64,000 nucleotides of DNA. Source: an uncultured Clostridia bacterium (GTDB lineage: Bacteria > Bacillota > Clostridia > Oscillospirales > CAG-272). Position 1 is the stretch's first letter, and the number at the start of each line of letters is the position of its first letter. The stretch is taken from the NCBI GenBank assembly GCA_947630015.1, contig CANRFY010000002.1:54710-118709 (forward strand). The letters are read 5' to 3'. The translations under genes were made by a program, and so were the position numbers. A model generated the notes under the pieces. It searched no databases and was not told the origin of the DNA. It worked only from the letters and a program-made list of their open reading frames with translations. Below, in pieces: positions 3,377 to 56,052 of the stretch.

Positions 3377-3430
3377 AGATTCCTCGTCAGTGAAAGTTTT
3401 TGCGGATCAGGACCCGCGATGCGCCCGTTC

Positions 3431-17425: not shown

Positions 17426-17440
17426 GCAGCATTGACATAA

Positions 17441-27191: not shown

Positions 27192-27198
27192 ATCAAAT

Positions 27199-27240
27199 AA
27201 ACGCGCTGCGCGGCGAGTATTCGCCGCGCAGCGCGTTTTT
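27199..27240 (+). terminator. Intrinsic terminator after the Cthe_2159-like gene
   Basis: 18-bp stem AAACGCGCTGCGCGGCGA-gtat-TCGCCGCGCAGCGCGTTT running into a T-tract. Confidence 0.85.
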
Positions 27241-27782
27241 AAGGAAAGTTTTGAAGGGATTCATAGCGGGGTTTGGGGCAGCGCCCGACCCAGCGGTATT
27301 CGCGCTCGCGCGACTACTTCGTCGACGCACAAACGTGCATCGCAGAAGCAAACACATTTGCCATATAGCCCTTGTAAGGAAAGTTTTGCGGGGATTCTTT
27401 GCGGGGTGCGGGGCAGCGCCCCGCGAAGCGGTGTTCGCGCTCGCGCGACTACTTCGTCGCCGCACAAACGCGCGATGCAAAGGCGAACACATTTGCCCCA
27501 TAACCTTTGTAAGGAAAGTTTTGAAGGGATTCTTAGCGGGGGCAGATGCTAAGCATCTGCTAACTTTCCGCTTGCGGAAAGTTTCTTAAGCGGGGTGCGG
27601 GGCAGCGCCCCGACCCAGCGGTATTCGCGCTCGCGCGACTACTTCGTCGACGCATAAACGTGCGATGCAGAGATGAACACACTTGCCCCATAACCCTTGT
27701 AAGGAAAGTTTTGAAGAGTTCTTAGAGGGACTTTTACAAAAGTCCCTCTAAGTGGGGTTTGGGGCAAAGCCCCAAAAACCTC
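27241..27782. repeat. Mosaic-repeat locus B: about 3.5 tandem scaffold units (135-bp period) plus palindromic cassettes
   Basis: AAGGAAAGTTTTG recurs at 27241, 27376, 27511 and 27701. Palindromes are GCAGATGCTAAGCATCTGC (27541-27559), AACTTTCCGCTTGCGGAAAGTT (27561-27582) and AGAGGGACTTTTACAAAAGTCCCTCT (27724-27749). The terminal GGTTTGGGGCaaaGCCCCAAAAACC hairpin ends 2 nt before the GH42 stop. Confidence 0.9.
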
Positions 27783-29795
27783 TCACACTCTCACGACCAG
27801 CACGCCATAGGGAGGGATCGTGTGGGGGCCGCGCAAGGGGCCGCCCGTTTCGGCGTCGGAAACGGGGCGGTGAAATTCTACCTCCGACTCCGTATGTGCG
27901 AAATTGAGGATGAAAAGATATCCGCCGCGCGCCGCGATCTCGCACTGTTCCGGGACTGCGACCGTATCCGCATACGGCTCCGCGAGTCCGAGCCGCGCGA
28001 TGAATTCGCGCGCCGCCGGCTCCGTGAACGTGCCGCCGTAATAGTACGCGCATCCGCCGCCGACCGATTTTCGCGTCAGCGCGCATCTTTCCGCGAACCA
28101 AGCGTCCTCATAAAACGCGAGCGGCTCCGCCCCGTCCTTCGGCGTCACAAAATCGGCGTAAACGCCGGCGGGGAATTTCCCATCTCCCCATCTGACTGAC
28201 GCCGGCGCGTCGCCTCCCGCCTGAGCCGTCGAATCGTCGACATCGGCTCCGCACCATTCGCCCACAAGCCCGGGCAGGCTCCTCATCGGGCAATGTCCGT
28301 TTTCATCCTTGTAGCCCGCGCGGCATCCGAACACGATCACACCGCCGCGCGACGCGTATTCATAAAGCAGGCGCGAACGCGCCTCCGTCATGATCGCCGC
28401 GTGCGGATAAAACAGCACCCGATACCGCATAAGCCGCTCCACATCAGCGCCGTCGTCGATGTAGACGTAGTCGCACGGCGCGTGCAGATGCTGCGAGGCG
28501 CGGAACAGCCCCTCGACGCTTTCGCCGTCGAGCGCGCGCCTCCACGCGTCCACATCGCAGTCGAAGATGTTGTCGTAGTCGCGGACGACCGCGTACCGCG
28601 CCTCGTATGCGCTTCCCGCCAGCCCCGAAAGGCTCGACAGCGTTTTGTGTATCTCCCCGATCTCGCAAAGGCGGCGCGTGTCCCTGTTGTCGTAATTCAA
28701 AATTCCGTGCCAGTATATCTCGGTTCCGAACGGCGCGGTCCGCCAGCGGAAAAAGCTTATATAATCGGCGCCGTGCGCCGCGCTCTGCATCGCCCAGAGC
28801 TTTATCTGCCCCGGCTTCGGCTGCGGCGACATTCCCCATGTGTTCCATGAATTCGCGCCCGTCTGCTGCTCCATTATGCCGAAATTGCCCGATATCGACC
28901 GCACCGCCGACAGATCGCGGCTCCAGCCGCGATCCGCCATCCCGCGTTCGGGATGCGATCCCGTGCCGTAGGCAAAATTCGGATACGAATCGTACATGAA
29001 CACGTCGAGCGCCTCGCGCGTCATTCTGTGATTGTCGAGATGCCCGAACATCCCGTTCGTCGTGATGAAATCGTCCGGCTTTTTGTATTCGCGGATGATG
29101 TCGGCCTGCATCTTCACAAACGAGATCGCCGAATCGGAGATGAATCTGATGTAGTCCGCCATCCCGTGCGGATTGTGCGCGCCGTTTACGGTCGGGCGCG
29201 GTACGTGGACCTCGTCAAAGCTGTTGTACGTCTGATTCCAGAACGCGCACCCCCAGGCGCGGTTCAGCTCGTCCGGCGTCCCGTACCTCGCGCGCAGAAA
29301 TTCGCGAAACGCGCCGTCGTCCGATTCCGAATAAAACACATCCGCCTCGCAGTTGACCTCGTTGTCGATCTGCCAGCCGATCACGCATCTGCGGCGCGCG
29401 AAATGCTCCGCAAGCGCGCGCACGACGCGCGCGGACAGCTCGCGGTATTTGGGCGAATTATAGTTGTAATGGCGGCGCGAGCCGTGGCCGTAGCGGACGC
29501 CGTTTATATCCGCGTTGAGCGATTCGGGATATTTCTCCGTCAGCCATGCCGGCGGCGTCGCCGTCGGCGTACACATTATCACATTCATCCCGACGCGCTC
29601 GCACAGATCGAGGAATCCGTCGAAGAAATCGAACGTGAAATTTCCCTCCGTTCTCTCCGTTATGCTCCATGAAAACTCCGCAATCCTGACGGTCGTGATC
29701 CCGACGTCCGTCATCCGCAAGAGGTCCGATTCCCAAAGCGACCGGTCCCAATGCTCCGGATAATAGCATACGCCGAGCGAAACGCATCCTGCCAT
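27783..29795 (-). CDS. Beta-galactosidase, glycoside hydrolase family 42
   Basis: Start at ATG 29795 (MAGCVSLGVCYYPEHWDRSLWESDLLRMTDVGITTVRIAEFSW). Contains the acid/base block GWQIDNE. The length is about 670 aa, typical of GH42. The track ORF start at 29927 is an upstream extension. Confidence 0.9.
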   Translation of the reverse strand: MAGCVSLGVCYYPEHWDRSLWESDLLRMTDVGITTVRIAEFSWSITERTEGNFTFDFFDGFLDLCERVGMNVIMCTPTATPPAWLTEKYPESLNADINGVRYGHGSRRHYNYNSPKYRELSARVVRALAEHFARRRCVIGWQIDNEVNCEADVFYSESDDGAFREFLRARYGTPDELNRAWGCAFWNQTYNSFDEVHVPRPTVNGAHNPHGMADYIRFISDSAISFVKMQADIIREYKKPDDFITTNGMFGHLDNHRMTREALDVFMYDSYPNFAYGTGSHPERGMADRGWSRDLSAVRSISGNFGIMEQQTGANSWNTWGMSPQPKPGQIKLWAMQSAAHGADYISFFRWRTAPFGTEIYWHGILNYDNRDTRRLCEIGEIHKTLSSLSGLAGSAYEARYAVVRDYDNIFDCDVDAWRRALDGESVEGLFRASQHLHAPCDYVYIDDGADVERLMRYRVLFYPHAAIMTEARSRLLYEYASRGGVIVFGCRAGYKDENGHCPMRSLPGLVGEWCGADVDDSTAQAGGDAPASVRWGDGKFPAGVYADFVTPKDGAEPLAFYEDAWFAERCALTRKSVGGGCAYYYGGTFTEPAAREFIARLGLAEPYADTVAVPEQCEIAARGGYLFILNFAHTESEVEFHRPVSDAETGGPLRGPHTIPPYGVLVVRV

Positions 29796-29950
29796 ATCGC
29801 CGCACCTGCCTTTGCCGTTATTTTTTATAATTGTATCACGGACGGCGCATAAAGTCCACACAACAGATAAAAATATTTGCCGATACGATTGACAAACGCA
29901 CGATTCAGTCATAAAATAAAATGGCAAGTGCGATATGGCGGAGGTTATTT

Positions 29951-30826
29951 ATGCCTGTTGAAAAGAAGCGCGTCGGCGCCAAGGACATCATATCGGATAT
30001 AATGTTTATACTGCTCGGAAGCGCGCTGTACGGCAGCGCGATCGTGTTCTTTCTCGGGCCGTCCGGCACCATCATGGGCGGCGCAACCGGTATTGCGACG
30101 ACGGTGAACATATTCTTCCCGCAGGTCACGATAGGTACGATGATATTCGTCGCCAACGTGCCGCTTCTGCTGATCGGTCTGCGCGTGTTCGGACTGCGCA
30201 TACTGTGGCGCGTCATCATCGCCGTTTTCTCGACGTCGCTGATGTCGAACCTGCTTGAATTCATCCCGTTCACCGTGACCGACGATCCGCTCCTCTGCGC
30301 CATAATGGGCGGTCTTCTGCTCGGCGCCGGAGGCGGCCTTCTTCTCTCCCGCGGCTACAACAGCGGCGGCTCCGATCTCGCCGCCGTGATGCTGCGTCGG
30401 ACGCTTTTGCGCGCGTTCTCGACGGGGCGCATCATATTCGGTCTCGATCTTTTGATCGTCGTCGGTTCGGCGCTTCTGACCCGCAATTATACGGGCATAT
30501 TCTATTCGCTGATCGCGACATACGCATATTCGTTCGCCATCGATTACATCATCGACGGCAATAAGACGGCGAAGATGACGTTCATCATCTCCGATAAATA
30601 CGAGGATATCGCCGACGGCATCTTCAGCGAGCTGTCGCGCGGCGTCACGCTTTTGAACGGCCTCGGCTGGTACTCGGGCAGCGAAAAACACGTCATCCTC
30701 TGCGTCGTTAAACCGCATGAACTCTTCCGCGTCAAAGCGCTCGTAAAACGCATCGACCCAGCCGCCTTCATGATCCTCACCGACGCTAAAGAAGTCGCCG
30801 GCCTCGGATTTGAGGCACTCGAATAG
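29951..30826 (+). CDS. YitT-family membrane protein (DUF2179 C-terminal domain)
   Basis: Start at ATG 29951, 6 nt after GGAGG. It has the YitT-type N-terminus DIMFILLGSALYGSAIVFFLGPSGTIMGGATGIA and a C-terminal soluble domain (VTLLNGLGWYSGSEKHVILCVV). Confidence 0.85.
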   Translation: MPVEKKRVGAKDIISDIMFILLGSALYGSAIVFFLGPSGTIMGGATGIATTVNIFFPQVTIGTMIFVANVPLLLIGLRVFGLRILWRVIIAVFSTSLMSNLLEFIPFTVTDDPLLCAIMGGLLLGAGGGLLLSRGYNSGGSDLAAVMLRRTLLRAFSTGRIIFGLDLLIVVGSALLTRNYTGIFYSLIATYAYSFAIDYIIDGNKTAKMTFIISDKYEDIADGIFSELSRGVTLLNGLGWYSGSEKHVILCVVKPHELFRVKALVKRIDPAAFMILTDAKEVAGLGFEALE

Positions 30827-31250
30827 AGGGGTGCGGAGCGATAGCTTTCGGGGCGTTTGCTTTCGGGGCGCTGCCTAAGTTTTCGGGGCGCTGCCCCAAA
30901 CCCCGCTTAGAGGGACTTTTGTAAAAGTCCCTCTAAGAACTCTTCAAAACTTTCCTGACAAGGGTGATAGGGCAAGTGTGTTCGCCTCTGCGCTGCGCGT
31001 TTGTGCGCCGACGAAGTAGTCGCGTGAGCGCGAACACCGCTGGTTCGGGCGAATGTGTTCGCTGCTTCGATGCGCGTTTGTGCGCCGACGAAGTAGTCGC
31101 GCGAGCGCGAACACCGCTTCACGGGGCGCTGCCCCGTACCCCGCTTAAGGAACTTCTTATAAGAAGTTCCTTAAGAATCTTCAAGAATTTTTATGACAAG
31201 GGTTATTTAGCGAATGTGTTCGCCTCTGCGATGCGCGTTTGTGCGGGGAT
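30827..31250. repeat. Mosaic-repeat locus C (inverted orientation relative to locus B)
   Basis: Contains three GGGGCGCTGCC(CC) hairpins and the palindrome AGAGGGACTTTTGTAAAAGTCCCTCT (30910-30935). It also contains the palindrome CTTAAGGAACTTCTTATAAGAAGTTCCTTAAG (31144-31175) and about 2.5 scaffold units (GGCAAGTGTGTTCGCCTCTGCG...CGACGAAGTAGTCGCG...GCGAACACCGC). Confidence 0.9.
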
Positions 31251-31448
31251 ACGGTGCAATTTATATTTTCTCGCGATCGGGCGCTCATGGGTGAGCGTCC
31301 GTGTTTATTAACATAAAATATACTGCTTTTTTTCGCACAATCACGATGTATTTATGCATTTTCCACGTTGTAATCTTTTCTGTGTTGTGATAAAATACCG
31401 AACTGGTGACTGTATGAAGCGCAAAATCGAAAGGAAGATATAATTATC

Positions 31449-32699
31449 ATGGAACAGTTAAAGGGAGCCTGCATAATCGGGCAGTCCGGCGGACCCACAT
31501 CCGTCATTAACGCAAGCGCATACGGCGCGATCAAAGCCGCTCTCAACTCGGACGTTATAACCGGCGTATACGGCGCAGAAAACGGCATCAAGGGCGTGCT
31601 TGAGGATCGTCTCATCGATATGGCGAAGGAAGACGCAGACGAGCTTGAGCTGCTCAGATATACGCCCTCGTCCGCGCTCGGCTCATGCCGTTATAAGCTC
31701 AAGGACCCCGACGTCGACGACACCGACTATAAGCGCATCCTTGAAATATTCAAAAAGTACAACGTCCGCTACTTCTTCTACAACGGCGGCAACGACAGCA
31801 TGGATACGTGCAACAAGATCAGCAAATACTGCCTTAAGAACGGCTATGAATGCCGCGTCATGGGTATTCCGAAGACGATAGACAACGACCTCGCCGTCAC
31901 CGATCACTGCCCCGGCTTCGCATCCGCGGCAAAATATATCGCGACGTCCGTCATGGAGGTCTACCGCGACGCCCGCGTCTATGATACGGGTATGGTTACC
32001 GTTATCGAGATCATGGGACGCAACGCGGGCTGGCTCACCGCCGCATCCGCGCTCGCCGCAGTCAAGGGCAACGGCCCCGATCTCATCTATCTGCCCGAGA
32101 TCGATTTCGACGTCGATTCGTTCGTTGAAAAGGTAAAGGCTCTTTACGAGAAGCAGCACAAGGTGATCGTATGCGTCTCCGAGGGCATCCACGACAAAGA
32201 CGGCAAATATATCGCCGAGTACGGCTCCGATCTCGCATCGCATAAGGACAGCTTCGGCCACGCTCAGATGGGCGGCGTCGCATCGTATCTTGCGAACGTC
32301 GTCAAGGACGCGACGGGCGCCAAGGTGCGCGGCATCGAGCTTTCCCTGCTCCAGCGCTGCGCCGCTCACTGCGCATCCCAGACCGATATCGACGAGAGCT
32401 TCATGTCCGGCAAGATGGCGGTCGAATATGCGACCGAGGGCATCACGGATAAAATGGTCGGTCTGCGCCGCACATACGACGAAAACGGCAAATACGTCTG
32501 CGAACCCGAGCTTATCGAACTTTCCGACGTCGCAAACGCCGAAAAGAAGGTCCCGCTCGAATGGCTCAACGAGACTCAGGACGGCATGAACGAGAAATTC
32601 ATCGAATACTGCCTGCCTCTCATCCAGGGCGAAACGAAAATGATCAAGGAAGACGGCCTGCCGAGATTCGCAAATCTTAAAAAGGTCCGCGTCCAGTAA
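31449..32699 (+). CDS. 6-phosphofructokinase family enzyme, probably PPi-dependent (PfkA/Pfp family)
   Basis: 416 aa with the N-terminus IIGQSGGPTSVINAS, YNGGNDSMDT at the GGDGS/GGDDS position, and GIPKTIDNDL (Lys rather than Gly before TIDND). Confidence 0.85.
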   Translation: MEQLKGACIIGQSGGPTSVINASAYGAIKAALNSDVITGVYGAENGIKGVLEDRLIDMAKEDADELELLRYTPSSALGSCRYKLKDPDVDDTDYKRILEIFKKYNVRYFFYNGGNDSMDTCNKISKYCLKNGYECRVMGIPKTIDNDLAVTDHCPGFASAAKYIATSVMEVYRDARVYDTGMVTVIEIMGRNAGWLTAASALAAVKGNGPDLIYLPEIDFDVDSFVEKVKALYEKQHKVIVCVSEGIHDKDGKYIAEYGSDLASHKDSFGHAQMGGVASYLANVVKDATGAKVRGIELSLLQRCAAHCASQTDIDESFMSGKMAVEYATEGITDKMVGLRRTYDENGKYVCEPELIELSDVANAEKKVPLEWLNETQDGMNEKFIEYCLPLIQGETKMIKEDGLPRFANLKKVRVQ

Positions 32700-32719
32700 T
32701 CCCGAATCAATAATAAAAT

Positions 32720-32762
32720 CACATCGGCCTTTCCGTAAACGGCAAGACCGATGTGTTTTTTA
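32720..32762 (+). terminator. Intrinsic terminator after pfk
   Basis: CACATCGG...CCGATGTG stem followed by TTTTTTATT. Confidence 0.75.
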
Positions 32763-33205
32763 TTGCACAAACGCGCGATGCAGAGATGAACACACTTGCC
32801 CCATAACCCCTGTAATAAAAGTTTTTGAAAGGTTCTTAGCGGGGGCAGATGCGAAGCATCTGCTAACTTTCCGCTTGCGGAAAGTTTCCTAAGCGGGGTG
32901 CGGGGCAGCGCCCCGAAAGTCGGTGTTCGCGCTCGCGTGACTACTTCGTCGACGCACGACCGCGCGGCGCAGAAGCGAACGCCGTCGCCCAACACCATCG
33001 GTGTTCGCGCCCGCGCGACTACTTCGTCGGCGCACAAACGCGCGATGCAGAGGCGAACACACTCGCCCCATAACCCCTGTCAGGAAAGTTTTGCGGGGAT
33101 TTTTAGCGGGGGCAGATGCGAAGCATCTGCTAACTTTCCGCTTGCGGAAAGTTCGACTTTCTTTCAAAAGCTCCCCTTAAGCGGGGTGCGGGGCAGCGCC
33201 CCGAA
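32763..33205. repeat. Mosaic-repeat locus D (same orientation as locus B)
   Basis: About 3 scaffold units. The GCAGATGCGAAGCATCTGC + AACTTTCCGCTTGCGGAAAGTT cassette pair appears twice (32845-32886 and 33111-33152). GGGGCAGCGCCCC hairpins are at 32901 and 33191. The array ends 12 nt before the addA stop. Confidence 0.9.
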
Positions 33206-33217
33206 TATAAACAAAAT

Positions 33218-36200
33218 TCACTCAAATCTAAGCTCGACAGCGTCGCCGAGGTGCATAGAATAGATGAGGACGTGGGCGGGCGGCGCGCCGAAGATGGCGG
33301 CGAGGGCGGCCCTGTAATAGGAGAGCTGGCGCGAATGGCGGGCCGTCAAGACTTTTTCGGCCGCGCCGCGATGCGAGAGTTCATACGGCGAGAGGCGGTC
33401 GGTCTTGTAATCCACAAGCGTAATCCCGCCGTCCCGATCGCGGAAGAAGCAGTCCACGACGCCCTGAACAAGCAGCTCCTCGCCGCGGTAAAGCTCGCGA
33501 TCCGATTCCGATTCGGTGAAATCGGACGCCGGCAGCCTCACATTAAAGCGGCGCTCGCGCCATACCTGCGCCGCACCTGTTATGCGGCGATAAAGATCGC
33601 TTTTGAAAAATCTCTCCACCTCATCGATGCGGACGCGTCCCGCGTCCTCGCGCGTCATGTAGCCGAGCGCGCAAAGCCGCTCGCATTCCGCGTCCGCATC
33701 CTCGGCGGCGCGCGCAAAATCGCAGAACTGCATGAAGATGTGCGTCGCCGTGCCGGCAAGCGCCGACGGCGTCGGCGCCGACTCGGACTCCGCAGAGAAC
33801 GAGACCGCATCCTCGTCAAGGATGTTCGGCTCGAGCCGAGATACCGACAGCTTCGCCGGAAGCGCCCCGATCCGCTCATACGGATATCGGTACAAAAGCC
33901 GACGCCGTATCTCTTCCGCATATTCGGCCGTCCGCTCCGCATCAACGGCGATACCGGCAGAGCCGGCATCGCTTTCGGCGGCGGCAGCACCGGCAGCGAT
34001 CGCCTCGGTATCCCCGTCGGCGGCGCCGGCGGCGATCTCAAGCTCGTATCCGTCATAGCCGGACGCAGACAGCGCCGACAGTATCCATCCTATCATCGTG
34101 CGCTCGCTTCTGACCGCGTGCGCGGAGAAAAACTCCGCTGCAGCCGCAGCTCCGCCGACAACCCGCTCCGGATCGTCGACGCCCGCCGTCACAACAAGCC
34201 GCGACCGCGCCCGCGTCAGCGCCACATACAGTATCCTCATCTCCTCCGCCGCGTTCTCGTCCGAGATCGCGGCCGCGACGCCGCGACGCCAGAGTGTGTC
34301 GTTCATCAAGGTCGAGTTCGGATCGGCGCGCAGCTTCATCGCCGCACCCGCTGACGCCGAATACAGCACCGACGCGCGCGAATCGCGTTCGTTGCGCAAA
34401 GCGCCGCATCCGGCAAGGATCACAAGCTCAAATTCGAGTCCCTTCGATTGGTGGATCGTCATGATCCGCACCTCGCTTTTGTCCGACGACGCGGAGACGG
34501 GATTGTTGACGCCGCCCTCTATCATCGTGTCGACGTATTCGAGGAATCTGTACAGCCCGCGATATCCCCCCGACTCAAATCCGCGCGCGTATTCGTAAAG
34601 CGCCGCCACATTGTCGGCGCGCAGACGCGCTGCCGCGCCTCCGTTTTCCTCCGACCAAAGCTGAGTCTCGACTCCCGTCTCGTCCGCAATAAATCTGACA
34701 GCCTCGTCGGACGTCATCGTGCGCGTACGCGCGCGCCAGCCCCGCACAGTCTCATATGCGGCGCGGCACCGCGCCGCAAGCTTATCGTCCGGCTCTCCGC
34801 TCTCCGCGTCGCGGAGGATGTGATATATCGGCCTTTCGTCGCCCGACTTGATCCTCACAAGCTCGTCAAGACTGAACCCGAACGCGGGCGATCGCAGCGC
34901 GCCCGCCATGTATACGTCGTAGAGCGGATTGTCGCATACGTGAAGCAGACAAAGCATCAGCAGTATTTCGGGACTTTCAAAGAAATTCGCCGCCGCGTCG
35001 TTTCTGACCGGCACGCGCCGCCGTCCCAAAGCGTCTGCGAATTCGGTTCCCCGACTCTTCGCCGAACGCAGCAATATCGCGATTTTGTCGGGTGCGACGC
35101 CGTCCGCGATCGCCTTTTCGATCATGTCCGCCACAGCCTCCGGCTCGCGGCTCCGCGTCGTGACAACGACGCGCGCTGGGATTTTCCCGTCCGCGTCCGA
35201 TTTTGCGTATACGAGCGCGTCGCGGCGCTCGTATGTCACGTTCCCGAACGGCAAAAGCCGCCCGCATACAGCGTTCGTGAAATCCACGACGGCGCGGTCG
35301 CACCTGAAATTCTCCGACATGAACACAGTCTTTATCGTGTGCCTGTACGAATCGAACAGCGACGGCTCCGCTCCGCGGAAGCCGTATATCGACTGCTTTA
35401 CGTCCCCGACCATGAACCGCGTCCGCCCCGCGCCCGCGATCGCGGTAAATATCGCGTCCTGAACGCCGTTTACGTCCTGATATTCGTCGATGCAGATCTC
35501 GTCGTATTCGCGTCCGACCTCCGCCGAGACGTCGCGCCGCGATAAAAGCTCGCACGCGAACCGCTCCAGATCGTCGTAATCGACGACGGCGCGGCGGCGC
35601 TTCTCAGCCGCAAGCCGCTCGTCGAATTTGTCGAGTACGCGGCATATGATCCCGCATACGTCCGCCGTTGCCGCGATCGACGATTCAAGCACGCCGCGCG
35701 GGACCGTGAAATATTCGTCGCCGGCGTCGGCGACGAATTTGCCGAGCGCGGTCCGCGCCTCGCAGAAAAACGCGACGCGCGGCGGCTTTTCCTTGCCGCG
35801 CACTGCGGGCAGGCGCGGCAGCTCCGCTTTGTACGCCGCGATCGCCGCCGCCGTCCCGTCATAGTCGCCGGACTCGACGGACGAGAGGATCGCCGAGGCG
35901 CGGTCGCGCGAATATTCAAATACGGGCGCGTATTTCGCCCCGAAATCTGCAAAATCGGGCAGTTCTTCCACCGCCGCCGACATTATCGCGATATAATGCC
36001 GGAGTCCGTCCGCAACGCGCCTTTTGATCGCCTTGCCCGCGGCCGTATCGAGGAATCCGTCGACGCCGGCGCGAACGGCGGCCCCGGCGCTGTCCGCGAT
36101 CACACGGTGACGACGGCGTCGGCACGACGTCTTCGCGTACAGCGTCAAAAGCGTATCCGCAAGCACGCCGTCGCCTCTGCCGCCGCCTATATGATCCGAC

Positions 36201-39900: not shown

Positions 39901-40736
39901 TTCTGCGCCGCCATGATCTCGGCCGCCGCCGCAAGCGCGTCGTCTCTGCATACGGCGTTTGTCGCCAGCGCGGAGCCTGCCGAAAACGCGTCGACCGGCG
40001 AGCCGTCAAGGCGCGAAAACGCGCCTCCAGCCTCGTTCAGTATCAGATACGCCGCCGCGAAATCCCACGGCGACAGCTTCATCTCGAAATAAACGTCGTA
40101 CCGTCCGGCCGCGACATAGCATATATCGAGCGCCGCCGATCCCTCGCGTCTCACCTCGCGGCACGACAAAAACATTCTCTTCGCGAGCGCGAACGTGGCG
40201 TCCGCATACCGCCTTTCATACGGCGTCGTCCCGAACGCGCAGAGCGCGTCCCGCATCTCGCGGCGCGACACCGATATCGGCGCGTCCGCGCCGTTTTTGC
40301 GCATACGCGCCCCGCCGCCCGCCGACGCATAGAACATCTCGTCAAGATACGGATTGTAAACGCATCCGAAAACGACGCTTCCGTTTTCGGCGGCGGCGAC
40401 AGATACGGCGCTGTGCGACAGCCCGTGGATGAAATTCGTCGTGCCGTCGATCGGATCGACGATGAACGAGACGCCGCGATCCTTATAGCTGCGCGCGCCG
40501 TCCGCGTCCTCCTCGGCGAGAAATCCCGCCTCTGGTATTATCTCATGCAGCCGCGAGCATAAAACGCGCTGCGTCTCCAAATCCCAGACTGTCGCGAAAT
40601 TCGCGTCCCCGGGCTTGACCTTCATATGCGATTCGACGTCGTGCGCCGAAAGCAGTCCGCGCCCCGCGCTTTTGACCGCTTCCATTATGTCAGACTTCAC
40701 ATTCTCCGTCAGTATCGTCGCGTTCATGTTCGTCAC
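39897..40736 (-). CDS. Inositol monophosphatase family protein (SuhB-like)
   Basis: 279 aa with the motifs FLAEED, FIVDPIDGTTNFIHG and SPWDFAAA. The GTG start at 40736 lies 6 nt after GGAGG. Confidence 0.85.
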   Translation of the reverse strand: MTNMNATILTENVKSDIMEAVKSAGRGLLSAHDVESHMKVKPGDANFATVWDLETQRVLCSRLHEIIPEAGFLAEEDADGARSYKDRGVSFIVDPIDGTTNFIHGLSHSAVSVAAAENGSVVFGCVYNPYLDEMFYASAGGGARMRKNGADAPISVSRREMRDALCAFGTTPYERRYADATFALAKRMFLSCREVRREGSAALDICYVAAGRYDVYFEMKLSPWDFAAAYLILNEAGGAFSRLDGSPVDAFSAGSALATNAVCRDDALAAAAEIMAAQK

Positions 40737-41610
40737 CGTGATCCTCCCCGTCCCCCGCGCGCATCCCGCGCAGATTTATATTTCGCCTTATCGGCGCCTC
40801 GCCCCTCCACGAAAACGCGCGGCGGTCAAATCCGCCGTCCGCCTCGAGTTCGTCGAGCGTTTTCCCGTCGAGCGTTTTGATCAGTTTATCCTTAAAATAT
40901 GAAAGCGGCGTTTCGAGCGTTCCCGCCGCCCTTGCCGCCGCCGTATACGGACACGCAAGCTGGCATATATCGCATCCCCACACGTATTCGGCCGCCGAGA
41001 CGGCGGCCTCGTCCTCATCCGTCAGCCGCTTTTTCTGCGTGATCGCCGACAGACATTTCCCCGCGTCGATCCTTCCGCCGCCCAAGATCGCGCGCGTGGG
41101 ACACGCGTCCCTGCACGCACCGCATTTGACGCACGATTTTGCCTCGAATGTGGAGCGAAGCTCCACATTCGAGACGATTTTAGGCCATATTGCGGCGGGA
41201 TAGTCCGTATATATTCCGGCGATGAAGACGAACGAGGAATACTCGCGCGTGATGAGCAGGCCGTTCTCGCCGTAAACGCCGAGACCCGCCTTCGCCGCCG
41301 CCGCGACCTCGTGTATCGGCGAATGATCCGCGTATCCCGCGAATTTCGGGTCGGGACATATTCCCGACAGCCGCGCGCACAGATCGGAAAACAGCTCGCG
41401 GCAGAACGCGTGATAATCCTCCGCGGCCGCGTACATCGAGACGTTGCCGCCCTCGCCGCCGTGCGTGAAGTACGGCAGAAGGATCAAAAGCGCGCTGCCG
41501 TCAGACGTGATCCCCGCGCGCTCGAGCAGGTACGGCTTCGCGATTACGCATTCCGAAAGCGGTATCGCGCCGTAAAGCTCGACGCCGTAAAGCTCATACA
41601 GATCGATCAT
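40690..41610 (-). CDS. queG: Epoxyqueuosine reductase QueG-like (DUF1730 + 2x[4Fe-4S]) protein
   Basis: 306 aa with ferredoxin motifs CVKCGACRDACP and CDICQLACP and the QueG-type block CLSAITQKK. It is shorter than canonical QueG. Its 3' end overlaps the IMPase gene by 47 nt. Confidence 0.7.
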   Translation of the reverse strand: MIDLYELYGVELYGAIPLSECVIAKPYLLERAGITSDGSALLILLPYFTHGGEGGNVSMYAAAEDYHAFCRELFSDLCARLSGICPDPKFAGYADHSPIHEVAAAAKAGLGVYGENGLLITREYSSFVFIAGIYTDYPAAIWPKIVSNVELRSTFEAKSCVKCGACRDACPTRAILGGGRIDAGKCLSAITQKKRLTDEDEAAVSAAEYVWGCDICQLACPYTAAARAAGTLETPLSYFKDKLIKTLDGKTLDELEADGGFDRRAFSWRGEAPIRRNINLRGMRAGDGEDHGDEHERDDTDGECEV

Positions 41611-47061: not shown

Positions 47062-47425
47062 GGATGGTTTTTGGGGTTTCACCCCAAACCCTGACTTAAG
47101 GGGGGCTTTTGAGAAAGCCCCCCTTAAGAATCCCCGCAAAACTTTCCTGACAAGGGGTATATGGCAAGTGTGTTTGCTTCTGCATCGCACGTTCGTGCAA
47201 GGGCGAAGTAGTCGCGCGGAGCGCGAACACCGCCTCGCGGGGCGCTGCCCCGCACCCCGCTTAAGAAACTTTCCGCAAGCGGAAAGTTTCTTAAGAATCC
47301 CCGCAAAACTTTCCCTACAAGGGGTATAGGGCAAGTGTGTTTGCCTCTGCATCGCACGTTTGTGCAAGGGCGAAGTAGTCGCGCAAGCGCGAACACCGCC
47401 TCGCGGGGCGGATGCGTTCAGCTTT
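47062..47425. repeat. Mosaic-repeat locus E (inverted orientation)
   Basis: Starts 4 nt after the ABC gene stop with GGTTTTTGGGGtttcaCCCCAAACC. Next is CTTAAG-GGGGGCTTTtgagAAAGCCCCC-CTTAAG (47095-47128). Two scaffold units follow, separated by CTTAAG-AAACTTTCCGCAAGCGGAAAGTTT-CTTAAG (47260-47295). Confidence 0.9.
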
Positions 47426-47544
47426 GCGATGCGCGGTTTAAAGCGGGGCTTATCGGAACATATTGTGAAAAAGGACGCCGCCCCTGTGGCGGCGTTCTTT
47501 TATAGCATAAATCCGACATAATGAATGATTTTCGCAAAATCCAC

Positions 47545-47574
47545 TTGACAATCCAAATCTTTTATGTATATAAT
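47545..47574 (+). promoter_or_regulatory. Sigma-A-type promoter of rpmH operon (TTGACA-18-TATAAT)
   Basis: -35 at 47545-47550 and -10 at 47569-47574. It is about 80 nt upstream of rpmH. Confidence 0.65.
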
Positions 47575-47655
47575 ATTACCTGTGTTATGTCGAGGCCAAC
47601 ATACCGATCAAAACAGGTTTTGAACACATAAAGGAAGAGGAGGAGGTGCCGACAG

Positions 47656-47790
47656 ATGAAGAGAACTTACCAGCCCAAGAAGCTCCAGAGGCAGAAGGAG
47701 CACGGCTTCATGAAGAGGATGAAGACCGCTAACGGACGCAAGGTTTTAAAGAGAAGACGCGATAAGGGCAGAGCTCGCCTCTCTTATTGA
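47656..47790 (+). CDS. rpmH: 50S ribosomal protein L34
   Basis: Too short for the ORF track. It is preceded by GGAGGAGG. Translation: [44 protein letters not shown]. Confidence 0.95.
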
Positions 47791-47890
47791 TCCACAAACG
47801 CGAAAGACCCGCCGACCCGTGGCATTCAGTCACAGAATCGGAGGGTTTTCGGTTAGTATGGGAGCGGGAACATCCCGCGAAAACGCCGCA

Positions 47891-48238
47891 ATGAAGATAC
47901 AAACGGTATGTGACAACAGAACCTTCCAGCGCGCCTACAGGCGCGGCAGGAAGCACGCGGGGCGATACGTCGTCGTATATGATCTGCCGGCGAAAGGCTC
48001 GTTCCCCGACACGCGGCTCGGATTGACTGTTACAAAGGGACGCGGCGGCGCCGTTGTGCGCAACCGCATCAAGCGCATCATCCGCGCCGCATTTTTTGAC
48101 ATTGCGAAAAGGCGTCCCGTCGAGGGCGGCCACGATATTATCATTGTGGCGCGCGACGCTGCGCGCGACGCGAAATCGACCGACATTATACCCGAGCTGG
48201 AGCTTGCGCTATCGGCGCTGTCGGTACTTGAGCGATGA
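47891..48238 (+). CDS. rnpA: Ribonuclease P protein component
   Basis: Start taken at ATG 47891 (MKIQTV...). Contains [10 protein letters not shown] and the RNR motif [14 protein letters not shown]. It follows rpmH. The track ORF starts at 47819. Confidence 0.85.
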
Positions 48239-48489
48239 AGCGCGCGCTGATTTGGCTCATACGCCTCTATCAGCGGTACGTATCCCCGCTGAAGCGGACG
48301 CCGTCGTGCAGATTTACCCCGACCTGTTCGCAGTATGCGATCGACGCCGTCAGCGAATGGGGCGTTATTATCGGGGTTGGCCTTGCCGTATGGCGGATAC
48401 TGAGATGCAATCCGTTCTGCCGCGGCGGATACGATCCCGTCCCAAAGCGCAAAAAGCGCAGCTCGGGCGGCGGCATGACGCATGATTAA
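48235..48489 (+). CDS. yidD: Membrane protein insertion efficiency factor YidD
   Basis: 84 aa with [11 protein letters not shown]....[12 protein letters not shown] and LRCNPF..GGYDPVP. ATGA overlap with rnpA. Confidence 0.9.
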
Positions 48490-48564
48490 CGATCGAAAAT
48501 TTGCCGGACGGCGGCACGGTCACGCCGGACGGCCACAATCGGATCTGACCGGGAAAACGATTTT

Positions 48565-50184
48565 ATGACAAGAAAAAGAAAAAAACATTCTCCGTATTCG
48601 CTGCGGATCGCGATAATGATCCTCACGGTCGCGGCGTTCGTCGTCACGATGGCGCTGCCCGTATTTGCCGATACGCCCGACACATCCGCCGACGACGGCG
48701 GCGAGGTTTCCGAGATATCGGCGCTCACCGTCAAAAAGACGGCAGAAAAGGAATCGAACGGCAAATACACGTTTACCGTCACGCTTTCGGACAAGACCGT
48801 AAACGGTCAATTCAACGCCGTCTCGGAAAACGATCTCGCCATGACGTTTGAAAACGGTGTCGCGACGTTTGAGATCGCCGACAACGGAGCCGCCTCCGCG
48901 TTGGGACTTCCGTCCGGCGTCAGTTACGTGGTCGAGATCGACGGCAAAGACGATTCCGTTTCGAGCGTAGGTTCGAGCGGGACTCTCGCCGCAGGCGTCA
49001 ATTCCGTCGCCGTATTCGACTCATACGATCCCGCCGACAGCTCGGGATTCGGTCTTTTTGACATTCTGCTCGTGCCGATGGGCTTCATCATCCGCATCTG
49101 CTACATGGTGACGCACAACTATGCGGCGGCGCTGCTTCTGTTTGCGATCGTGATGCAGCTGCTTTTGTTCCCGCTCGGCATCAAGCAGCAGAAGAACATG
49201 AACAAGCAGGCGTCGCTTCGTCCGAAGGAGCTTGCAATCCGCAAGAAATATGCGGGCAGAACCGATTCCGTTACGCAGAAAAAAGTCAACGAAGAGATCA
49301 TGGCGCTCTATCAGCAGGAAAATTTCAATCCCGCGAGCGGATGTCTGCCGCTTCTGATCCAGCTCCCCATCATCTTCGCGCTGTTCGCCGTTGTGCGCGA
49401 GCCGCTGAAATATATCACGCGTCTCCCCGCCAACATCATTTCGTCGCTCAACAGACTGTTTACGGGACTCGGCACGACCTCCGTCGGCTATGAGCAGATC
49501 GGAGCCGTATCGTATCTGAAGGATCAGGGCGCCTCCGCCGTCGGCGGATTCGGCGATCACATCTCCCAGACTGTAGTGGACGCGATGCCGACGTTCAAGA
49601 TATTCGGCGGCGCGTTCGATCTCTCCGTCCCGCCGTCGACAAAGATCTGGAGCATTTATCTTCTCGTGCCGATTCTGACGTTCGTCTTCATGTACGGCTC
49701 GATGAAGCTGACGCGCAAATTCACCTATCAGCCGCAGCCGGCGGCCGGCGACACGCAGTCGACGGCGTCCATGAAGATCATGGAATTCGTCTCGCCCGCG
49801 ATGTGTACGTATTTCGCGTTCATAGTGCCGTCCGCGATCGGCATTTACTGGATCTACCGCAACATTCTCTCGTTCGTTCAGCAGGTGATCCTGTCCAAGA
49901 TCTATCCGACCCCGACGTTCACCGACGAGGAACTCAAAGCCGCCGAGCGCGAATATCTCGGCAAGACGAAGAAAACGTCCAAGAGCGAACGCGATCCGAA
50001 CGCTCCGCGTCCGCGTTCTCTGCACCGCATAGATTTTGACGACGACGATGACGATACCGCGTCCGCGCCGTCCGCGCCCGCGCCGTCCGAAAAGAAAAAG
50101 GATCCTTTGCTTGCTCCCGCGCCATTGAAGGACGACGACGACGGCAAAAGCGGCGGCGGCGACAGCGAATCAAAGGACAAATAA
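48565..50184 (+). CDS. yidC: YidC/Oxa1-family membrane insertase with an extra N-terminal extracytoplasmic Ig-like domain
   Basis: The YidC core starts at about aa 175 (NYAAALLLFAIVMQLLLFPLGIKQQKNM ... GCLPLLIQLPIIFALF). It is preceded by a signal anchor and a beta-rich segment of about 130 aa. The C-terminal tail is charged. Confidence 0.85.
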   Translation: MTRKRKKHSPYSLRIAIMILTVAAFVVTMALPVFADTPDTSADDGGEVSEISALTVKKTAEKESNGKYTFTVTLSDKTVNGQFNAVSENDLAMTFENGVATFEIADNGAASALGLPSGVSYVVEIDGKDDSVSSVGSSGTLAAGVNSVAVFDSYDPADSSGFGLFDILLVPMGFIIRICYMVTHNYAAALLLFAIVMQLLLFPLGIKQQKNMNKQASLRPKELAIRKKYAGRTDSVTQKKVNEEIMALYQQENFNPASGCLPLLIQLPIIFALFAVVREPLKYITRLPANIISSLNRLFTGLGTTSVGYEQIGAVSYLKDQGASAVGGFGDHISQTVVDAMPTFKIFGGAFDLSVPPSTKIWSIYLLVPILTFVFMYGSMKLTRKFTYQPQPAAGDTQSTASMKIMEFVSPAMCTYFAFIVPSAIGIYWIYRNILSFVQQVILSKIYPTPTFTDEELKAAEREYLGKTKKTSKSERDPNAPRPRSLHRIDFDDDDDDTASAPSAPAPSEKKKDPLLAPAPLKDDDDGKSGGGDSESKDK

Positions 50185-50205
50185 TACGAAAGGACAAGCC
50201 GTAAA

Positions 50206-50856
50206 ATGAAACAGGAAATAACAGTCACGGGCAAGACCGTCGAGGAAGCGCTTGCGTCCGCAAGGTCGCAGATATCCGTCGAGGGAGCCGAGATGGAATA
50301 TGAAATAGTAGATTTCCCGAAGAAGGGCTTTCTCGGGATCGGCGCGACTCCCTACGTCATAAAGGTCACCTACAATATACCCGAAGAAGAACCCGCGCTC
50401 GCGTTCGTAAAATCGCTGCTCGAATCTCTCGAGCTTGACGCGACGGTCACCGCCGTCGACGGCGAGGAGGGCGAGATGAAGATCAGCATCGACGGCGAAG
50501 GCGCAGGGCTTCTGATCGGCCATCACGGCGAAACGCTCGATTCGCTCCAGTATCTTGCAAGTCTCGCCGGCGCGCGCTCGAAATCCGACGATGCCGGCAA
50601 GCGCAGGATCATCGTCGACATCGAGGGCTATCGCGAAAAGCGCGCCGAAACGCTCCGTTCGCTCGCCCGCCGTATGTCGGCGCGCGTGCTGAAATACAAG
50701 CGCAGCGTCACGCTCGAGCCGATGAATCCCTACGAGCGCCGCATAATTCATTCCGAGGTGCAGAACATCGAGGGCGTCACGACCCATTCGATCGGCACCG
50801 ACGCAGACCGCCGCATCGTGATAAGCCTCGACCGCGGCGAACGCGCGGATCAGTGA
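50206..50856 (+). CDS. jag: Jag/KhpB RNA-binding protein (Jag_N, KH, R3H)
   Basis: 216 aa with LIGHHGETLDSLQYL (KH) and LEPMNPYERRIIHSEV (R3H). It follows yidC. Confidence 0.9.
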   Translation: MKQEITVTGKTVEEALASARSQISVEGAEMEYEIVDFPKKGFLGIGATPYVIKVTYNIPEEEPALAFVKSLLESLELDATVTAVDGEEGEMKISIDGEGAGLLIGHHGETLDSLQYLASLAGARSKSDDAGKRRIIVDIEGYREKRAETLRSLARRMSARVLKYKRSVTLEPMNPYERRIIHSEVQNIEGVTTHSIGTDADRRIVISLDRGERADQ

Positions 50857-50867
50857 TCGCATCTTTC

Positions 50868-50907
50868 GGGGGGCGCGTCCGTCACGGACGGCCCCCCGCA
50901 GCTTTTT
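50868..50907 (+). terminator. Intrinsic terminator/attenuator between jag and mnmE
   Basis: GGGGGGC-g-CGTCCG-tca-CGGACG-GCCCCCC hairpin (13 bp with one bulge) followed by GCAGCTTTTT. Confidence 0.65.
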
Positions 50908-50945
50908 CAGAGTCCAATTTGCAGTTGTGAACGGAGGATCGTAAA

Positions 50946-52331
50946 ATGCATATGACCGACACGATCGCGGCAGTCTCGACGCCGCGCGGCACGGGCGGGA
51001 TCGCGGTTCTGCGCGTATCGGGCGGCGACGCCGTAAAAATATGCTCGCGCGTGTTCCGTCCCGCGTCGCGCCGTTCCCTTGACGAGATACCGCACGCCTC
51101 CGCCGTTTACGGCGCGATCCTGCGCGCCCCCGACGGGGATACGCTCGATCACGGCATCGCGACCGTTTTCCGCGCCCCGCGCTCATATACGGGCGAGGAT
51201 ACTGTCGAGATCAGCTGCCACGGCGGCGCGCTTTTGACCGAATATGTGCTTGCCGCGATCCTGTCTGCGGGCGCGCGTCAGGCGGAGGCGGGTGAATTTA
51301 CGCGCCGCGCGTTCGCCTCGGGAAAGCTGACGCTTTCCGAGGCCGAGGCCGTCGGCAATCTCATCCACGCTAAAACGGGCGCTCAGATAGACGCGGCGGC
51401 CCCGACGCTTTCGCCCGCGGTCGCCGAGATCGCGGATTTGCTGACAAGTCTGATCGCGCGCGCCTCCGTCGTCGTCGATTATCCGGACGAGGATCTTGCC
51501 GATATTTCGCCCGACGAACTGCGCCGGTGCGCCGCCGACGCCGCTCTGCGGCTCCAAAAGCTGCAAGCGACGTACAGAACGGGACGCGCCGTCGTCGAGG
51601 GCGTCGTCACCGTGATCTGCGGGCGCCCGAACGCGGGCAAAAGCACGCTTTACAATTTGTTCGCGGGCGAGGATGCCGCCATCGTCACCGATATTGCCGG
51701 CACAACGCGCGATACTCTGACGCGCGACGTTGCGGCCGGCCGCGTTCTTCTGCGGCTCTCCGATACGGCCGGCATCCGCGAAGCTCACGATTCGATCGAA
51801 TCGATCGGCGTCGAACGCGCCCGCGCGAGGATCGCGGACGCGGAGCTTCTCATCGCGGTCCACGACGCGCATCTGCCGCCCGACGACGTCGACCGCGAGA
51901 TCCTGTCCTCATCCGCGCGCGTCAAGATCGCCGTCATAAACAAGCTTGACGATCCCGATTCGGCGGGCGGCGAGGTCGCCGCCGAATACCGCGCGCTTGC
52001 CGAGTCTGCGGGCGCGATCCCCGTCGACGCGTCGCTCATATCGGGGCGCGGATTCGATCAAATCGTCGCCGCAATCGAAGGTTCCCTCACCGACGGCTCG
52101 CTCGTGCTTGGTCACGACGCGATCGTGACGAACGCGCGTCAGGCGGCGCAGATCGGCGAGGCGCTCGACGGCGTCGATTCCGCCGTCGACGCGCTCGACG
52201 CTGGCGCGCCCGTCGATATTGCGGTGTGCGAGCTTCAGCGCGCGCTCGACGCGCTCCTGCGCCTCGACGGACGCCAAACGGCCGACGAGGTGCTTGACGA
52301 GATTTTCAGTAAATTCTGCGTCGGGAAGTAG
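50946..52331 (+). CDS. mnmE: tRNA modification GTPase MnmE (TrmE)
   Basis: 461 aa with DTIAAVSTPRGTGGIAVLRVSG, G1 motif GRPNAGKSTL, DTAGIRE and the C-terminal FCVGK. Confidence 0.95.
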   Translation: MHMTDTIAAVSTPRGTGGIAVLRVSGGDAVKICSRVFRPASRRSLDEIPHASAVYGAILRAPDGDTLDHGIATVFRAPRSYTGEDTVEISCHGGALLTEYVLAAILSAGARQAEAGEFTRRAFASGKLTLSEAEAVGNLIHAKTGAQIDAAAPTLSPAVAEIADLLTSLIARASVVVDYPDEDLADISPDELRRCAADAALRLQKLQATYRTGRAVVEGVVTVICGRPNAGKSTLYNLFAGEDAAIVTDIAGTTRDTLTRDVAAGRVLLRLSDTAGIREAHDSIESIGVERARARIADAELLIAVHDAHLPPDDVDREILSSSARVKIAVINKLDDPDSAGGEVAAEYRALAESAGAIPVDASLISGRGFDQIVAAIEGSLTDGSLVLGHDAIVTNARQAAQIGEALDGVDSAVDALDAGAPVDIAVCELQRALDALLRLDGRQTADEVLDEIFSKFCVGK

Positions 52332-52334
52332 GCA

Positions 52335-53305
52335 GGGGGGAAGGATGAGACGTGGCGGTACTTTATATGCTTTGCCTAAGTTTTTACAAAGTTTGGATTT
52401 TATCAAAATCTCTCTTTATATTGCAAAGAGCGGTTTGGGATGAGAATTTTTTCTTGCAAAGAGCTGATTTGGGATGAGGACCGTTTCTTCAAAAGAAAGG
52501 GTCCTCCCCCAACCCCCCTCTCCAAAAGAACAACGCGCGTTCGCTGTGTGCGAACAGCTCATCGCGGAGCGGTTGCTTTCACTGACGCGCTAAAATCCAC
52601 GAAGTGAAGACTTTCAGCGCCACCTTTTTACGAGGTGAGCTTCTTTTCTTTAAAAAGAAAAGAACCTCCCTCGCGCACCCTCAAGAAAAGAAACGCATCG
52701 CCCGTTTGTGTAGCAAAAAATGCTCAATCGCAGGTTGCCCCAAAATAAGCAATGCGTTCACTTCGGTGGACGCAATTTATTTCAGCAAAAATTTTCACAC
52801 CTACCACAATTCAACCCCTCTATTGACACACCTCACTCCATGTGCCGTAGGCTTGCCAGCCTCACCTACGCGTACCACGCGCGTGCGATGTTCGACGCTG
52901 CCAGCGTCCGAATGATTGTTACATTTCAGGCGGCGCAGTCAAATAAGTTCGCGTGGGAGCTGTTAGTAGGGGCGATATCGCGTTCGCACTGACATAAACC
53001 CTCAAGGAAGCACAAAACTGCGCGCCAACCGGTGCGAACCGTCTCGTATCTCTTTGTGAATCCCATTTGTTCGCACGACACGAGCGGAATCTGACGATGC
53101 CAGTAAGCGGTAAACCAAGACAGAATAACCTCGATCTCGACCCGCCGCGCGGAGGCACGGACGCGCTTGACGACATAATATCGCGGTTTACGCCCGAAAC
53201 GCTCCTGCCGCCGACTGGAGTGGAATTGACGCCACCGGCAAGCCGTTTTCTGGGATTGTTAAGGGTCTCTTTGCCGGCCAGCAAAGAGACCCTTAACTCT
53301 TTTTT
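52335..53305. repeat. ~1-kb non-coding tract of decayed mosaic-repeat fragments and hairpins
   Basis: No credible ORF, and visibly less GC-rich than the flanking genes. Degenerate matches to the scaffold unit: 52550-52572 vs 47389-47411, 52695-52714 vs 47349-47368, and 52993-53020 vs CATAACCCTTGTAAGGAAAGTTTTG. A direct repeat TTGCAAAGAGCnGnTTTGGGATGAG occurs twice (52421-52444 and 52454-52478). Palindromes are at 52638-52664 and 53259-53296. Confidence 0.7.
53259..53305 (+). terminator. Strong terminator-like hairpin (TTAAG-bounded palindrome + T-tract)
   Basis: 16-bp stem TTAAGGGTCTCTTTGC-cggcca-GCAAAGAGACCCTTAA followed by CTCTTTTTT on the plus strand only. Confidence 0.7.
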
Positions 53306-55864: not shown

Positions 55865-55869
55865 ACAAA

Positions 55870-55899
55870 CAGGGGAAAGCGAACGCTTTCCCCTGTTTT
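55870..55899 (+). terminator. Intrinsic terminator after the anti-sigma gene
   Basis: CAGGGGAAAGCG-aa-CGCTTTCCCCTG followed by TTTTGT. Confidence 0.8.
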
Positions 55900-55920
55900 G
55901 TCTGCAATCAATCGCCCGCC

Positions 55921-56052
55921 CTTGCACAAACGCGCAATATGAAGGCGAATACTCGCCAAATAACCCATGTCATAAAAATTCTTGAAGATTCTTAAGGAAC
56001 TTCTTATAAGAAGTTCCTTAAGCGGGGTTTGGGGCAGCGCCCCAAAAACCTC
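55921..56052. repeat. Mosaic-repeat locus F (partial scaffold unit + cassette + terminal hairpin)
   Basis: GCACAAACGCGCAATATGAAGGCGAATACTCGCCAAATAACCC is a degenerate unit. CTTAAGGAACTTCTTATAAGAAGTTCCTTAAG lies at 55991-56022. GGTTTGGGGCagcGCCCCAAAAACC ends 2 nt before the CotH stop. Confidence 0.85.

Follow-up and report, generated by a model that had tools for sequence, protein, structure and literature searches.

The stretch of DNA analysed here (hereafter the window) is 64,000 nt long and comes from an uncultured Clostridia bacterium (Oscillospirales; CAG-272), where it covers positions 54,710 to 118,709 of the forward strand of contig CANRFY010000002.1 in assembly GCA_947630015.1. Using nhmmer with a model made from six copies, five arrays of a modular repeat with a unit of about 135 bp are found at 27.2-27.78k, 30.86-31.27k, 32.75-33.2k, 47.06-47.45k and 55.9-56.05k. 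The genes upstream of the arrays are unrelated, and encode a GH42 beta-galactosidase, YitT, AddA, an ABC/FtsX transporter and CotH. Each array lies between the stop codon and a terminator-like hairpin, on the strand of the gene. The arrays therefore occupy 3' untranslated regions (UTRs).

Organisation of the arrays

Both the anatomy and the position of the arrays can be read directly from the DNA. In the sense of the upstream gene, the stop codon is followed after 5-20 nt by a hairpin h (GGGGCGCTGCCCC, then GCA/AAA-CCCCG), a slot, a module t (AATCCCCGCAAAACTTTCCTGACAAGGGGTATA and variants) and a core of about 72 bp. The slot is the junction of module t, ending in GATTCTTA, with module h, starting with GCGGGG. 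Between one core and the next there is a short linker (GGTTC or GATGGTGTT) or else a long one made up of h, slot and t, and at its 3' end the array stops with the first half of a core, directly before the terminator-like hairpin of the gene. Within each array all cores have the same orientation (head-to-tail). The best-conserved segment of the core is GAAGTAG-TCGCGC-loop-GCGCGA-ACAC, a 6-bp stem-loop tagged with GTAG. It is present in 9/9 cores of the window, with an invariant stem and a loop of GA, GG, AA, GGA or GGG, and also in all strain copies that were compared (15 distinct cores).

The arrays are reproduced base for base by independent metagenome contigs from ENA, which means that they are not assembly artefacts. 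They fold far more stably than shuffled sequences on both strands (z about -7.7), and there is a suggestive, weak excess of G-U pairs over A-C mismatches on the sense strand (S1: 8 vs 4). No Rfam 15 family matches the window at its gathering score, and a permissive scan of 27000-33300 gives chance-level matches only, those on the terminator. When the arrays are translated in four frames and compared to proteins, which would pick up spurious reading frames annotated on other copies, there is no match. A reading of the unit as a promoter or a small RNA gene was rejected, as by eye the unit is without a properly spaced hexamer pair.

Array c47 (47062-47450, plus strand) follows the stop codon of the ABC/FtsX gene (47059-61) and consists of h, palindrome, t, core, h, palindrome, t, core and a degenerate half core. 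According to the palindrome scan its two slots hold CTTAAG-GGGGGGCTTT-TGAG-AAAGCCCCCC-TTAAG (47095-47128, 15-bp arms) and CTTAAG-AAACTTTCCGC-AA-GCGGAAAGTTT-CTTAAG (47260-47295, 17-bp arms). The GTAG stem-loop of the core, GAAGTAG-TCGCGC-GGA-GCGCGA-A, is at 47205-47227 on the plus strand, with a second copy at 47372-47393. Distal to the array there is an intrinsic terminator-like hairpin (47476-47491, plus strand), and then a perfect TTGACA-18-TATAAT promoter (47545-47574), from which an rpmH-rnpA-yidD-yidC-jag-mnmE cluster (47545-52331) starts, with no dnaA upstream. The GC skew turns positive near 52-54k. From this turn it is probable that the window contains, or lies next to, the region of the replication origin.

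Array c27 (27239-27782, minus strand) follows the GH42 stop codon (27783) and has four t-h junctions, two filled and two empty. One filled junction contains CTTAG-AGGGACTTTT-AC-AAAAGTCCCT-CTAAG (27721-27752), the ends of which are inverted and not direct. The other contains a double palindrome, GCAGATGC-TAA-GCATCTGC together with AACTTTCCGC-TT-GCGGAAAGTT (27532-27590), flanked by CTTAGCGGGG and CTTAAGCGGGG. The empty junctions, taken from direct reading of the sequence, are GATT CTTTG CGGGG (27397-27401) and GATT CATAG CGGGG (27262-27266). A bidirectional terminator with an 18-bp stem, found by both the palindrome and the terminator scan, marks the distal end (27199-27238).

Array c30 (30827-31277, plus strand) lies between the YitT stop codon (30826) and a terminator at 31278-31301. 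Its order is degenerate h copies, h, palindrome, t, core, GGTTC short linker, core, h, palindrome, t and half core. The palindrome at 30906-30937 is of the AGAGGGAC type and has the same orientation relative to the scaffold of repeated modules as the one at 27721, and the palindrome at 31144-31175, CTTAAGGAACTTCTTA joined to TAAGAAGTTCCTTAAG, has 16-bp arms without a loop. The degenerate h copies number three (tttcggggcgtttgc, tttcggggcgctgcc and ttttcggggcgctgcccc) and occupy 30828-30884, from the stop codon to the first complete h, and suggest local slippage of the h hairpin.

Array c32 (32751-33217, minus strand) follows the addA stop codon (33218) and has the terminator of the phosphofructokinase gene PFK (32720-32762) at its distal end. 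It has a double-palindrome slot (32835-32893) and a composite slot (33102-33181) with two palindromes and a non-palindromic piece, CGACTTTCTTTCAAAAGCTCCC; the latter corrects the preliminary description, in which slot contents were purely palindromic. Array c55 (55903-56052, minus strand) is minimal. After the CotH stop codon (56053) it has only h, palindrome, t and half core, followed by a terminator at 55867-55898. Its palindrome (55991-56022) is an identical copy of the one at 31144-31175, and has the same rare t variant (ending in TTCTTGAAGATT) alongside.

It is worth noting how some arrays are placed with respect to each other. The first units of arrays c27 and c30 (27609-27779 and 30879-31049) form a 171-nt inverted repeat of 89% identity that brackets the divergent GH42-YitT pair, and arrays c30 and c32, again in inverted orientation, bracket PFK. 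Such inverted arrays are potential substrates for inversion.

Palindromes in the slot

The preliminary description, which was made from the letters of this DNA, proposed one fixed slot in the scaffold that holds interchangeable perfect palindromes bounded by CTTAAG. All the palindromes it quoted are found at their coordinates, both by reading the sequence and by a palindrome scan, and the slot itself is confirmed: 9/11 t-h junctions are filled, with five types of palindrome, mostly closed by CTTAAG, and the junctions at 27262 and 27397 are indeed empty. The window contains 15 perfect palindromes whose arms measure 12 bp or more and whose loops are at most 6 nt, vs 0 in 20 first-order Markov simulations, and slots hold 6 of the 15. 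Two of the quoted examples lie outside the scaffold. One, given as a variant at 17132-17156, has no CTTAAG, and the other, counted as a sixth palindrome (53259-53296), belongs to an ordinary terminator at 53258-53297 with a 17-bp stem and a T-run.

The former, a GGGGGGCTTT...AAAGCCCCCC palindrome at 17129-17159, is flanked by TTT/AAA and by G/C-run motifs that resemble module h. One further palindrome and one other repeat were seen off the scaffold. At 17196-17440, between the HPr terminator (17445-17473) and the start of uvrC, a sequence of about 120 bp (gttcgcYgcccgatYacgggcgatRttgaagct...) is present as two direct copies that match imperfectly; this is a different repeat from the scaffold. 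A perfect palindrome with 14-bp arms (CTCGAATGTGGAGC-GAA-GCTCCACATTCGAG) is located at 41143-41173, inside a 4Fe-4S protein gene (40690-41610).

The CTTAAG bounds are real, but they are not what they had been taken for. CTTAAG occurs 14 times in the window vs 5.5 expected; 10 of these occurrences bound a slot, which leaves 4 at background level. The hexamer is self-complementary and forms the outermost base pairs of the palindrome itself, and is not a separate flank. The bounds of the AGAGGGAC type, CTTAG...CTAAG, are inverted with respect to each other and not direct. Neither is what a target-site duplication, as had been suggested, would look like. A duplicated CTTArGCGGGG (10-11 nt), on which that suggestion was based, does exist, but is confined to the module with the double palindrome. 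All copies of this module have inherited it, so that it reflects one event, not several, and is not a general feature of filled slots.

Palindromes and scaffold are also not independent of each other. Asymmetric loops have one fixed orientation relative to the scaffold in all copies, and the type of palindrome co-varies with the neighbouring t variant: the AGAGGGAC type adjoins the GAAGAGTT variant at both 27721 and 30906, and the GGAAC type, at 31144 as well as at 55991, adjoins the rare TTCTTGAAGATT variant. The AAACTTTCCGC palindrome adjoins four different t variants. For 4/5 types, the arms are found nowhere else in the window than in slots. When arms are compared to the unit as possible inverted copies of the scaffold, the match is significant for one type of the five, the AAACTTTCCGC type (AAACTTTCC; 9 nt, p about 0.01), and the other four have no match in the unit. 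This suggests a source in the scaffold for that palindrome only.

Comparison between strains

Material from the same species consisted of low-coverage contigs from ENA and Logan. The comparisons covered the slots at 27721, 30906, 31144, 32835, 47095, 47260 and 55991, and thereby all five arrays; the evidence base is about 12 units and four or five polymorphic comparisons. At any slot the outcome was identity, replacement of a block including flanks, or loss or gain of the whole linker of h, palindrome and t. Clean empty and filled alleles, as the preliminary description would predict, were not among them: insertion or deletion of a palindrome only was seen at none of the seven slots. Slot content can nevertheless differ between strains at a single locus. 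In strain L014 the composite module known from 33102-33181 fills the slot at 30906, and a patch of the scaffold is changed along with it.

The L014 contigs give the clearest picture of how such changes occur. Compared to array c30 of the window, blocks of 0% divergence adjoin blocks of 21-24%. A patch of 181 nt is 95% identical to window positions 33197-33017, in an array 2 kb away, and 84% identical to its own positional orthologue. At 31120-31210 the whole linker of h, palindrome and t is absent and a short linker is found instead, and at 32800-32920 the same linker, with the double palindrome of 32835, is replaced by a 7-nt short linker. The neighbouring half core differs too at these sites. 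Array c30 has two cores and a linker in the window vs three cores without the linker in L014, and c32 likewise. In strain L021 the palindrome at 47260 is kept at 35/36 positions, within an array that diverges by 13.9%, compared to 1.3% for the unique DNA next to it. Overall, arrays diverge by 14-24% vs 0-2% for the flanking DNA. Since the patch is closer to a distant array than to its orthologue, and since arrays and flanks diverge so differently, the sequences point to ectopic gene conversion among the dispersed arrays. Polymorphism between strains and this signature are themselves direct observations. Not every array differs: the one at 55.9k is identical in contigs from three other samples.

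Look-ups with GAPDH, YidD, ABC and GH42 mostly returned the same strain, or contigs ending at the first palindrome. Short-read contigs of the species (L026, L027 and L030) break off right at the first slot palindrome or directly beyond it. The arrays thus fragment the assembly of metagenomes, and it is likely that they are under-represented in metagenome-assembled genomes (MAGs).

Distribution

The species has no entry among the GTDB representatives or in the JGI metagenomes. A search with the core pattern gave only 5 single chance matches, in unrelated phyla, in the GTDB species genomes, and 0 matches in the JGI metagenomes, where the commonest palindrome also had 0 matches. The GTAG-hairpin pattern had 0 matches in viral contigs, and blastn of an array against plasmids found nothing. 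At the orthologous loci of five relatives (L009-L013), which have a PFK identity of 89-93%, the scaffold is absent. Among the about 40 genes examined in the 64-kb window there is no transposase, RAYT (the transposase associated with REP elements), recombinase or restriction-modification gene, and no transposase, including the Y1 type, is present in the fetched loci of strains and relatives. The CTTAAG restriction system or TTAA transposase that the preliminary description had proposed to look for is thus not encoded in the window. CTTAAG is not depleted outside the repeats, for which reason a restriction system specific for it was rejected.

The sister species (L013, GCA_947586625.1) carries other palindrome-rich repeats. 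One is an unrelated 189-bp tandem array (positions 1-720 of the L013 sequence), located behind a tRNA-like 3' end. In copy 3 (561-613) the 25-bp arms of its palindrome match perfectly, and in copies 1 and 2 they are imperfect, which looks like an example of a quasipalindrome being made perfect. At 2990-3625, inverted arms of about 130 bp enclose the palindromes GAGGACCTTTTCTT-CAT-AAGAAAAGGTCCTC and ACTTTCTCGCAAGAAAG, and the centre also has two motifs, TGACAAGGGGG and CCCCGAACCCCC, that recall modules t and h. It may be that the sister species has a related family here.

Similarity to known mosaic repeats

According to the preliminary description, no described bacterial element is known to have such a nested design. 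This is wrong: NIMEs (neisserial intergenic mosaic elements), BIMEs and BOX elements are all built in this way. In NIMEs, RS units are separated by the 20-bp dRS3 element (ATTCCC-N8-GGGAAT), which has conserved 6-bp inverted termini and a variable centre, and the arrays vary between strains and promote recombination (PMC3898611). The Clostridia repeat shares with them intergenic arrays of a few hundred bp, units of 30-160 bp split by a short palindromic element, and conserved 6-bp inverted termini around a variable centre. The match is architectural only. By direct reading the sequence is unrelated (CTTAAG...CTTAAG vs ATTCCC-N8-GGGAAT), the variable interior is here a long perfect palindrome in its own right, the host is Gram-positive and belongs to a Clostridia lineage, no phage integrase is known to use the slot, and the units have one orientation and are tied to the 3' end of a gene.

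REP elements of Enterobacteria and Pseudomonas, and the BIMEs that they form, are similar in their extragenic position in 3' UTRs and in G-T pairs that hint at an RNA form (PMC3733652, PMC2817692). They also share a hairpin mosaic with alternative long and short linkers, and a GTAG tetranucleotide that stands at the foot of a GC-rich, short stem-loop whose loop varies. GTAG REPs are defined by stems of 6-13 bp and loops of 2-3 nt (PMC3733652), with GT[AG]G standing at the foot of the hairpin (PMC6006769), and the core stem-loop falls within this formal definition. Differences are that the Clostridia units are head-to-tail whereas the REPs of a BIME alternate, that the hairpin lies inside a 72-bp core, that neither the window nor the fetched loci encode a RAYT, and that long perfect palindromes as linker modules are not a feature of BIMEs.

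BOX elements of Streptococcus (boxA-boxB(n)-boxC, with boxD/E/F in S. suis) are likewise modular composite repeats in a Firmicute. The number of internal modules varies between strains, as seen here at c30 and c32, and they are enriched downstream of genes, with predicted RNA stem-loops and alternative terminal modules (PMC3049150). However, the sequences are unrelated, the Clostridia repeat is high in G+C, and BOX has terminal inverted repeats, target duplications and a link to insertion sequences, and is without a variable palindrome slot. Template switching within quasipalindromes accounts for perfect arms and for the coexistence of perfect and imperfect copies, as in L013 (PMC8794818, PMC7202029), but this is a mutational process and not an element, and it does not account for the source of 4/5 palindrome sequences. 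Taken together, the Clostridia repeat is new and lineage-restricted, and the design of a mosaic extragenic repeat, which resembles those of Neisseria and E. coli, was already known.

Origin of the slot palindromes

Several explanations can be considered for the palindromes. The preliminary description favoured ultra-short MITE-like palindromes: hairpins of 24-45 bp, mobile in an autonomous-like way, that insert at TTAA/CTTAAG in the scaffold and duplicate their target. Filled and empty junctions do both exist, four slots have CTTAAG at either side, the double palindrome is surrounded by duplicated CCCCGCTTAAG and CCCCGCTAAG, and the AAACTTTCCGC palindrome adjoins several t variants. We consider this unlikely all the same. 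CTTAAG belongs to the palindrome, CTTAG/CTAAG ends are inverted and not direct, the orientation relative to the scaffold is always the same, flanks and palindrome type vary together, and the strain comparisons contain no clean insertion allele. Furthermore, 4/5 arm types are found in slots only, the commonest palindrome has 0 matches in JGI metagenomes, the window has no transposase, and an element of 22-26 bp consisting of nothing but abutting ends would be implausibly small for a transpososome. Its other suggestion, cassette exchange, fares better in that exchange does occur, but it carries flanking scaffold along and looks like ordinary ectopic gene conversion. That the palindromes are ordinary gene-specific intrinsic terminators, which had been named as an alternative, can be practically discounted. 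They do follow stop codons, and the hairpins at 53258-53297, 27199, 31278, 47476 and 55867 are terminator-like; yet no slot palindrome has a T-run on the gene-sense strand, the terminator scan flags the distal hairpins instead (27238-27199, 31278-31301, 47476-47491, 55898-55867 and, for array c32, the PFK terminator), and the same palindromes recur behind unrelated genes.

Two further possibilities involve proteins. The GTAG stem-loop of the core could be a REP that is cut and rejoined by a RAYT (TnpA-REP, HUH-Y1) encoded elsewhere, with linkers and palindromes as passengers or by-products of single-strand processing. The GAAGTAG-TCGCGC-loop-GCGCGA segment is the most conserved one, in 9/9 cores, with an invariant stem and a variable loop, and its shape fits both the published definition (PMC3733652) and the position of GT[AG]G at the hairpin foot (PMC6006769). 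On the other hand, no Y1 transposase is found in the window or any fetched locus, the units are all head-to-tail and not alternating, the stem has a length of only 6 bp and lies within a core of 72 bp, GTAG REPs are unreported in Firmicutes (PMC3733652 lists other phyla), and the GTAG may be a coincidence. We regard this explanation as doubtful, although it is the least improbable of those weighed against our own. A bolder version, which is about as unlikely as mobile hairpins, is that the slot is a true site-specific insertion point, where an HUH/RAYT-type single-strand nuclease or another hairpin-processing activity loads perfect hairpin cassettes at CTTAAG in a GTAG-REP-like scaffold. If true, this would be the first REP/RAYT-like system in Firmicutes, with a nested exchangeable hairpin cassette. 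Alternatively, the palindromes could be recognition sites, either for site-specific recombinases or phage integrases or as operators of dimeric regulators, with slot diversity reflecting different proteins. A 12-2-12 or 11-2-11 palindrome geometry recalls invertase sites. Three of the types have this geometry, with conserved 6-bp termini and a variable interior as in the dRS3 of NIMEs (PMC3898611), and identical palindromes are found in inverted arrays that bracket gene blocks. Still, a separate protein would be needed for each of five or more unrelated sequences, there is no recombinase gene nearby, and strains show no rearrangement at the palindrome, with exchanges reaching well into the flanks. 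This makes recognition sites quite improbable, somewhat more so than mobile hairpins.

The explanation we prefer, and which is probably correct, is that the arrays are a lineage-specific mosaic extragenic repeat, in which the palindromes serve the long linker as alternative hairpin modules and are swapped by recombination. CTTAAG would be the closing stem of these modules, and homologous recombination would exchange them between copies along with flank of varying length. Slot contents would be swapped together with flank by ectopic gene conversion from one dispersed array to another, and unequal exchange or slippage within arrays would add or remove whole linkers and cores. Because CTTAAG direct repeats (CTTAAG...CTTAAG) bracket a strong hairpin, a palindrome might also be lost precisely by slippage. 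This would leave "empty" CTWAG junctions, each one base off CTAAG. The AAACTTTCCGC palindrome seems to have some independence from the scaffold, as it is constant in L021 while its flanks change and is found next to four t variants. Template switching is known to create and maintain perfect stems (PMC8794818), and perfect arms are expected from it within quasipalindromes (PMC8794818, PMC7202029). In the arrays, the arms may be kept perfect by such switching within the hairpin, by selection on an RNA hairpin, or by both. If transcribed, an array would put a stack of stable RNA hairpins at the 3' end of the mRNA. Because the arrays sit inside 3' UTRs, a function as RNA hairpins, as has been proposed for REP and BOX elements, is likely judging from their position.

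Implications

Mosaic extragenic repeats such as BIME, NIME and BOX are known from a few cultured pathogens. The same building logic is now found in an uncultured, high-G+C lineage of gut Clostridia. Two features stand out: a GTAG hairpin of REP shape, a kind unreported in Firmicutes, and the use of long perfect palindromes as exchangeable linker modules. The arrays evolve about ten times faster than the surrounding DNA. They break short-read assemblies and form inverted repeats around housekeeping genes, and thus are of importance for the quality of MAGs, for strain typing and for genome rearrangement. If transcribed, the perfect hairpins of 15-17 bp that they place in 3' UTRs would be candidate signals for mRNA stability or processing.
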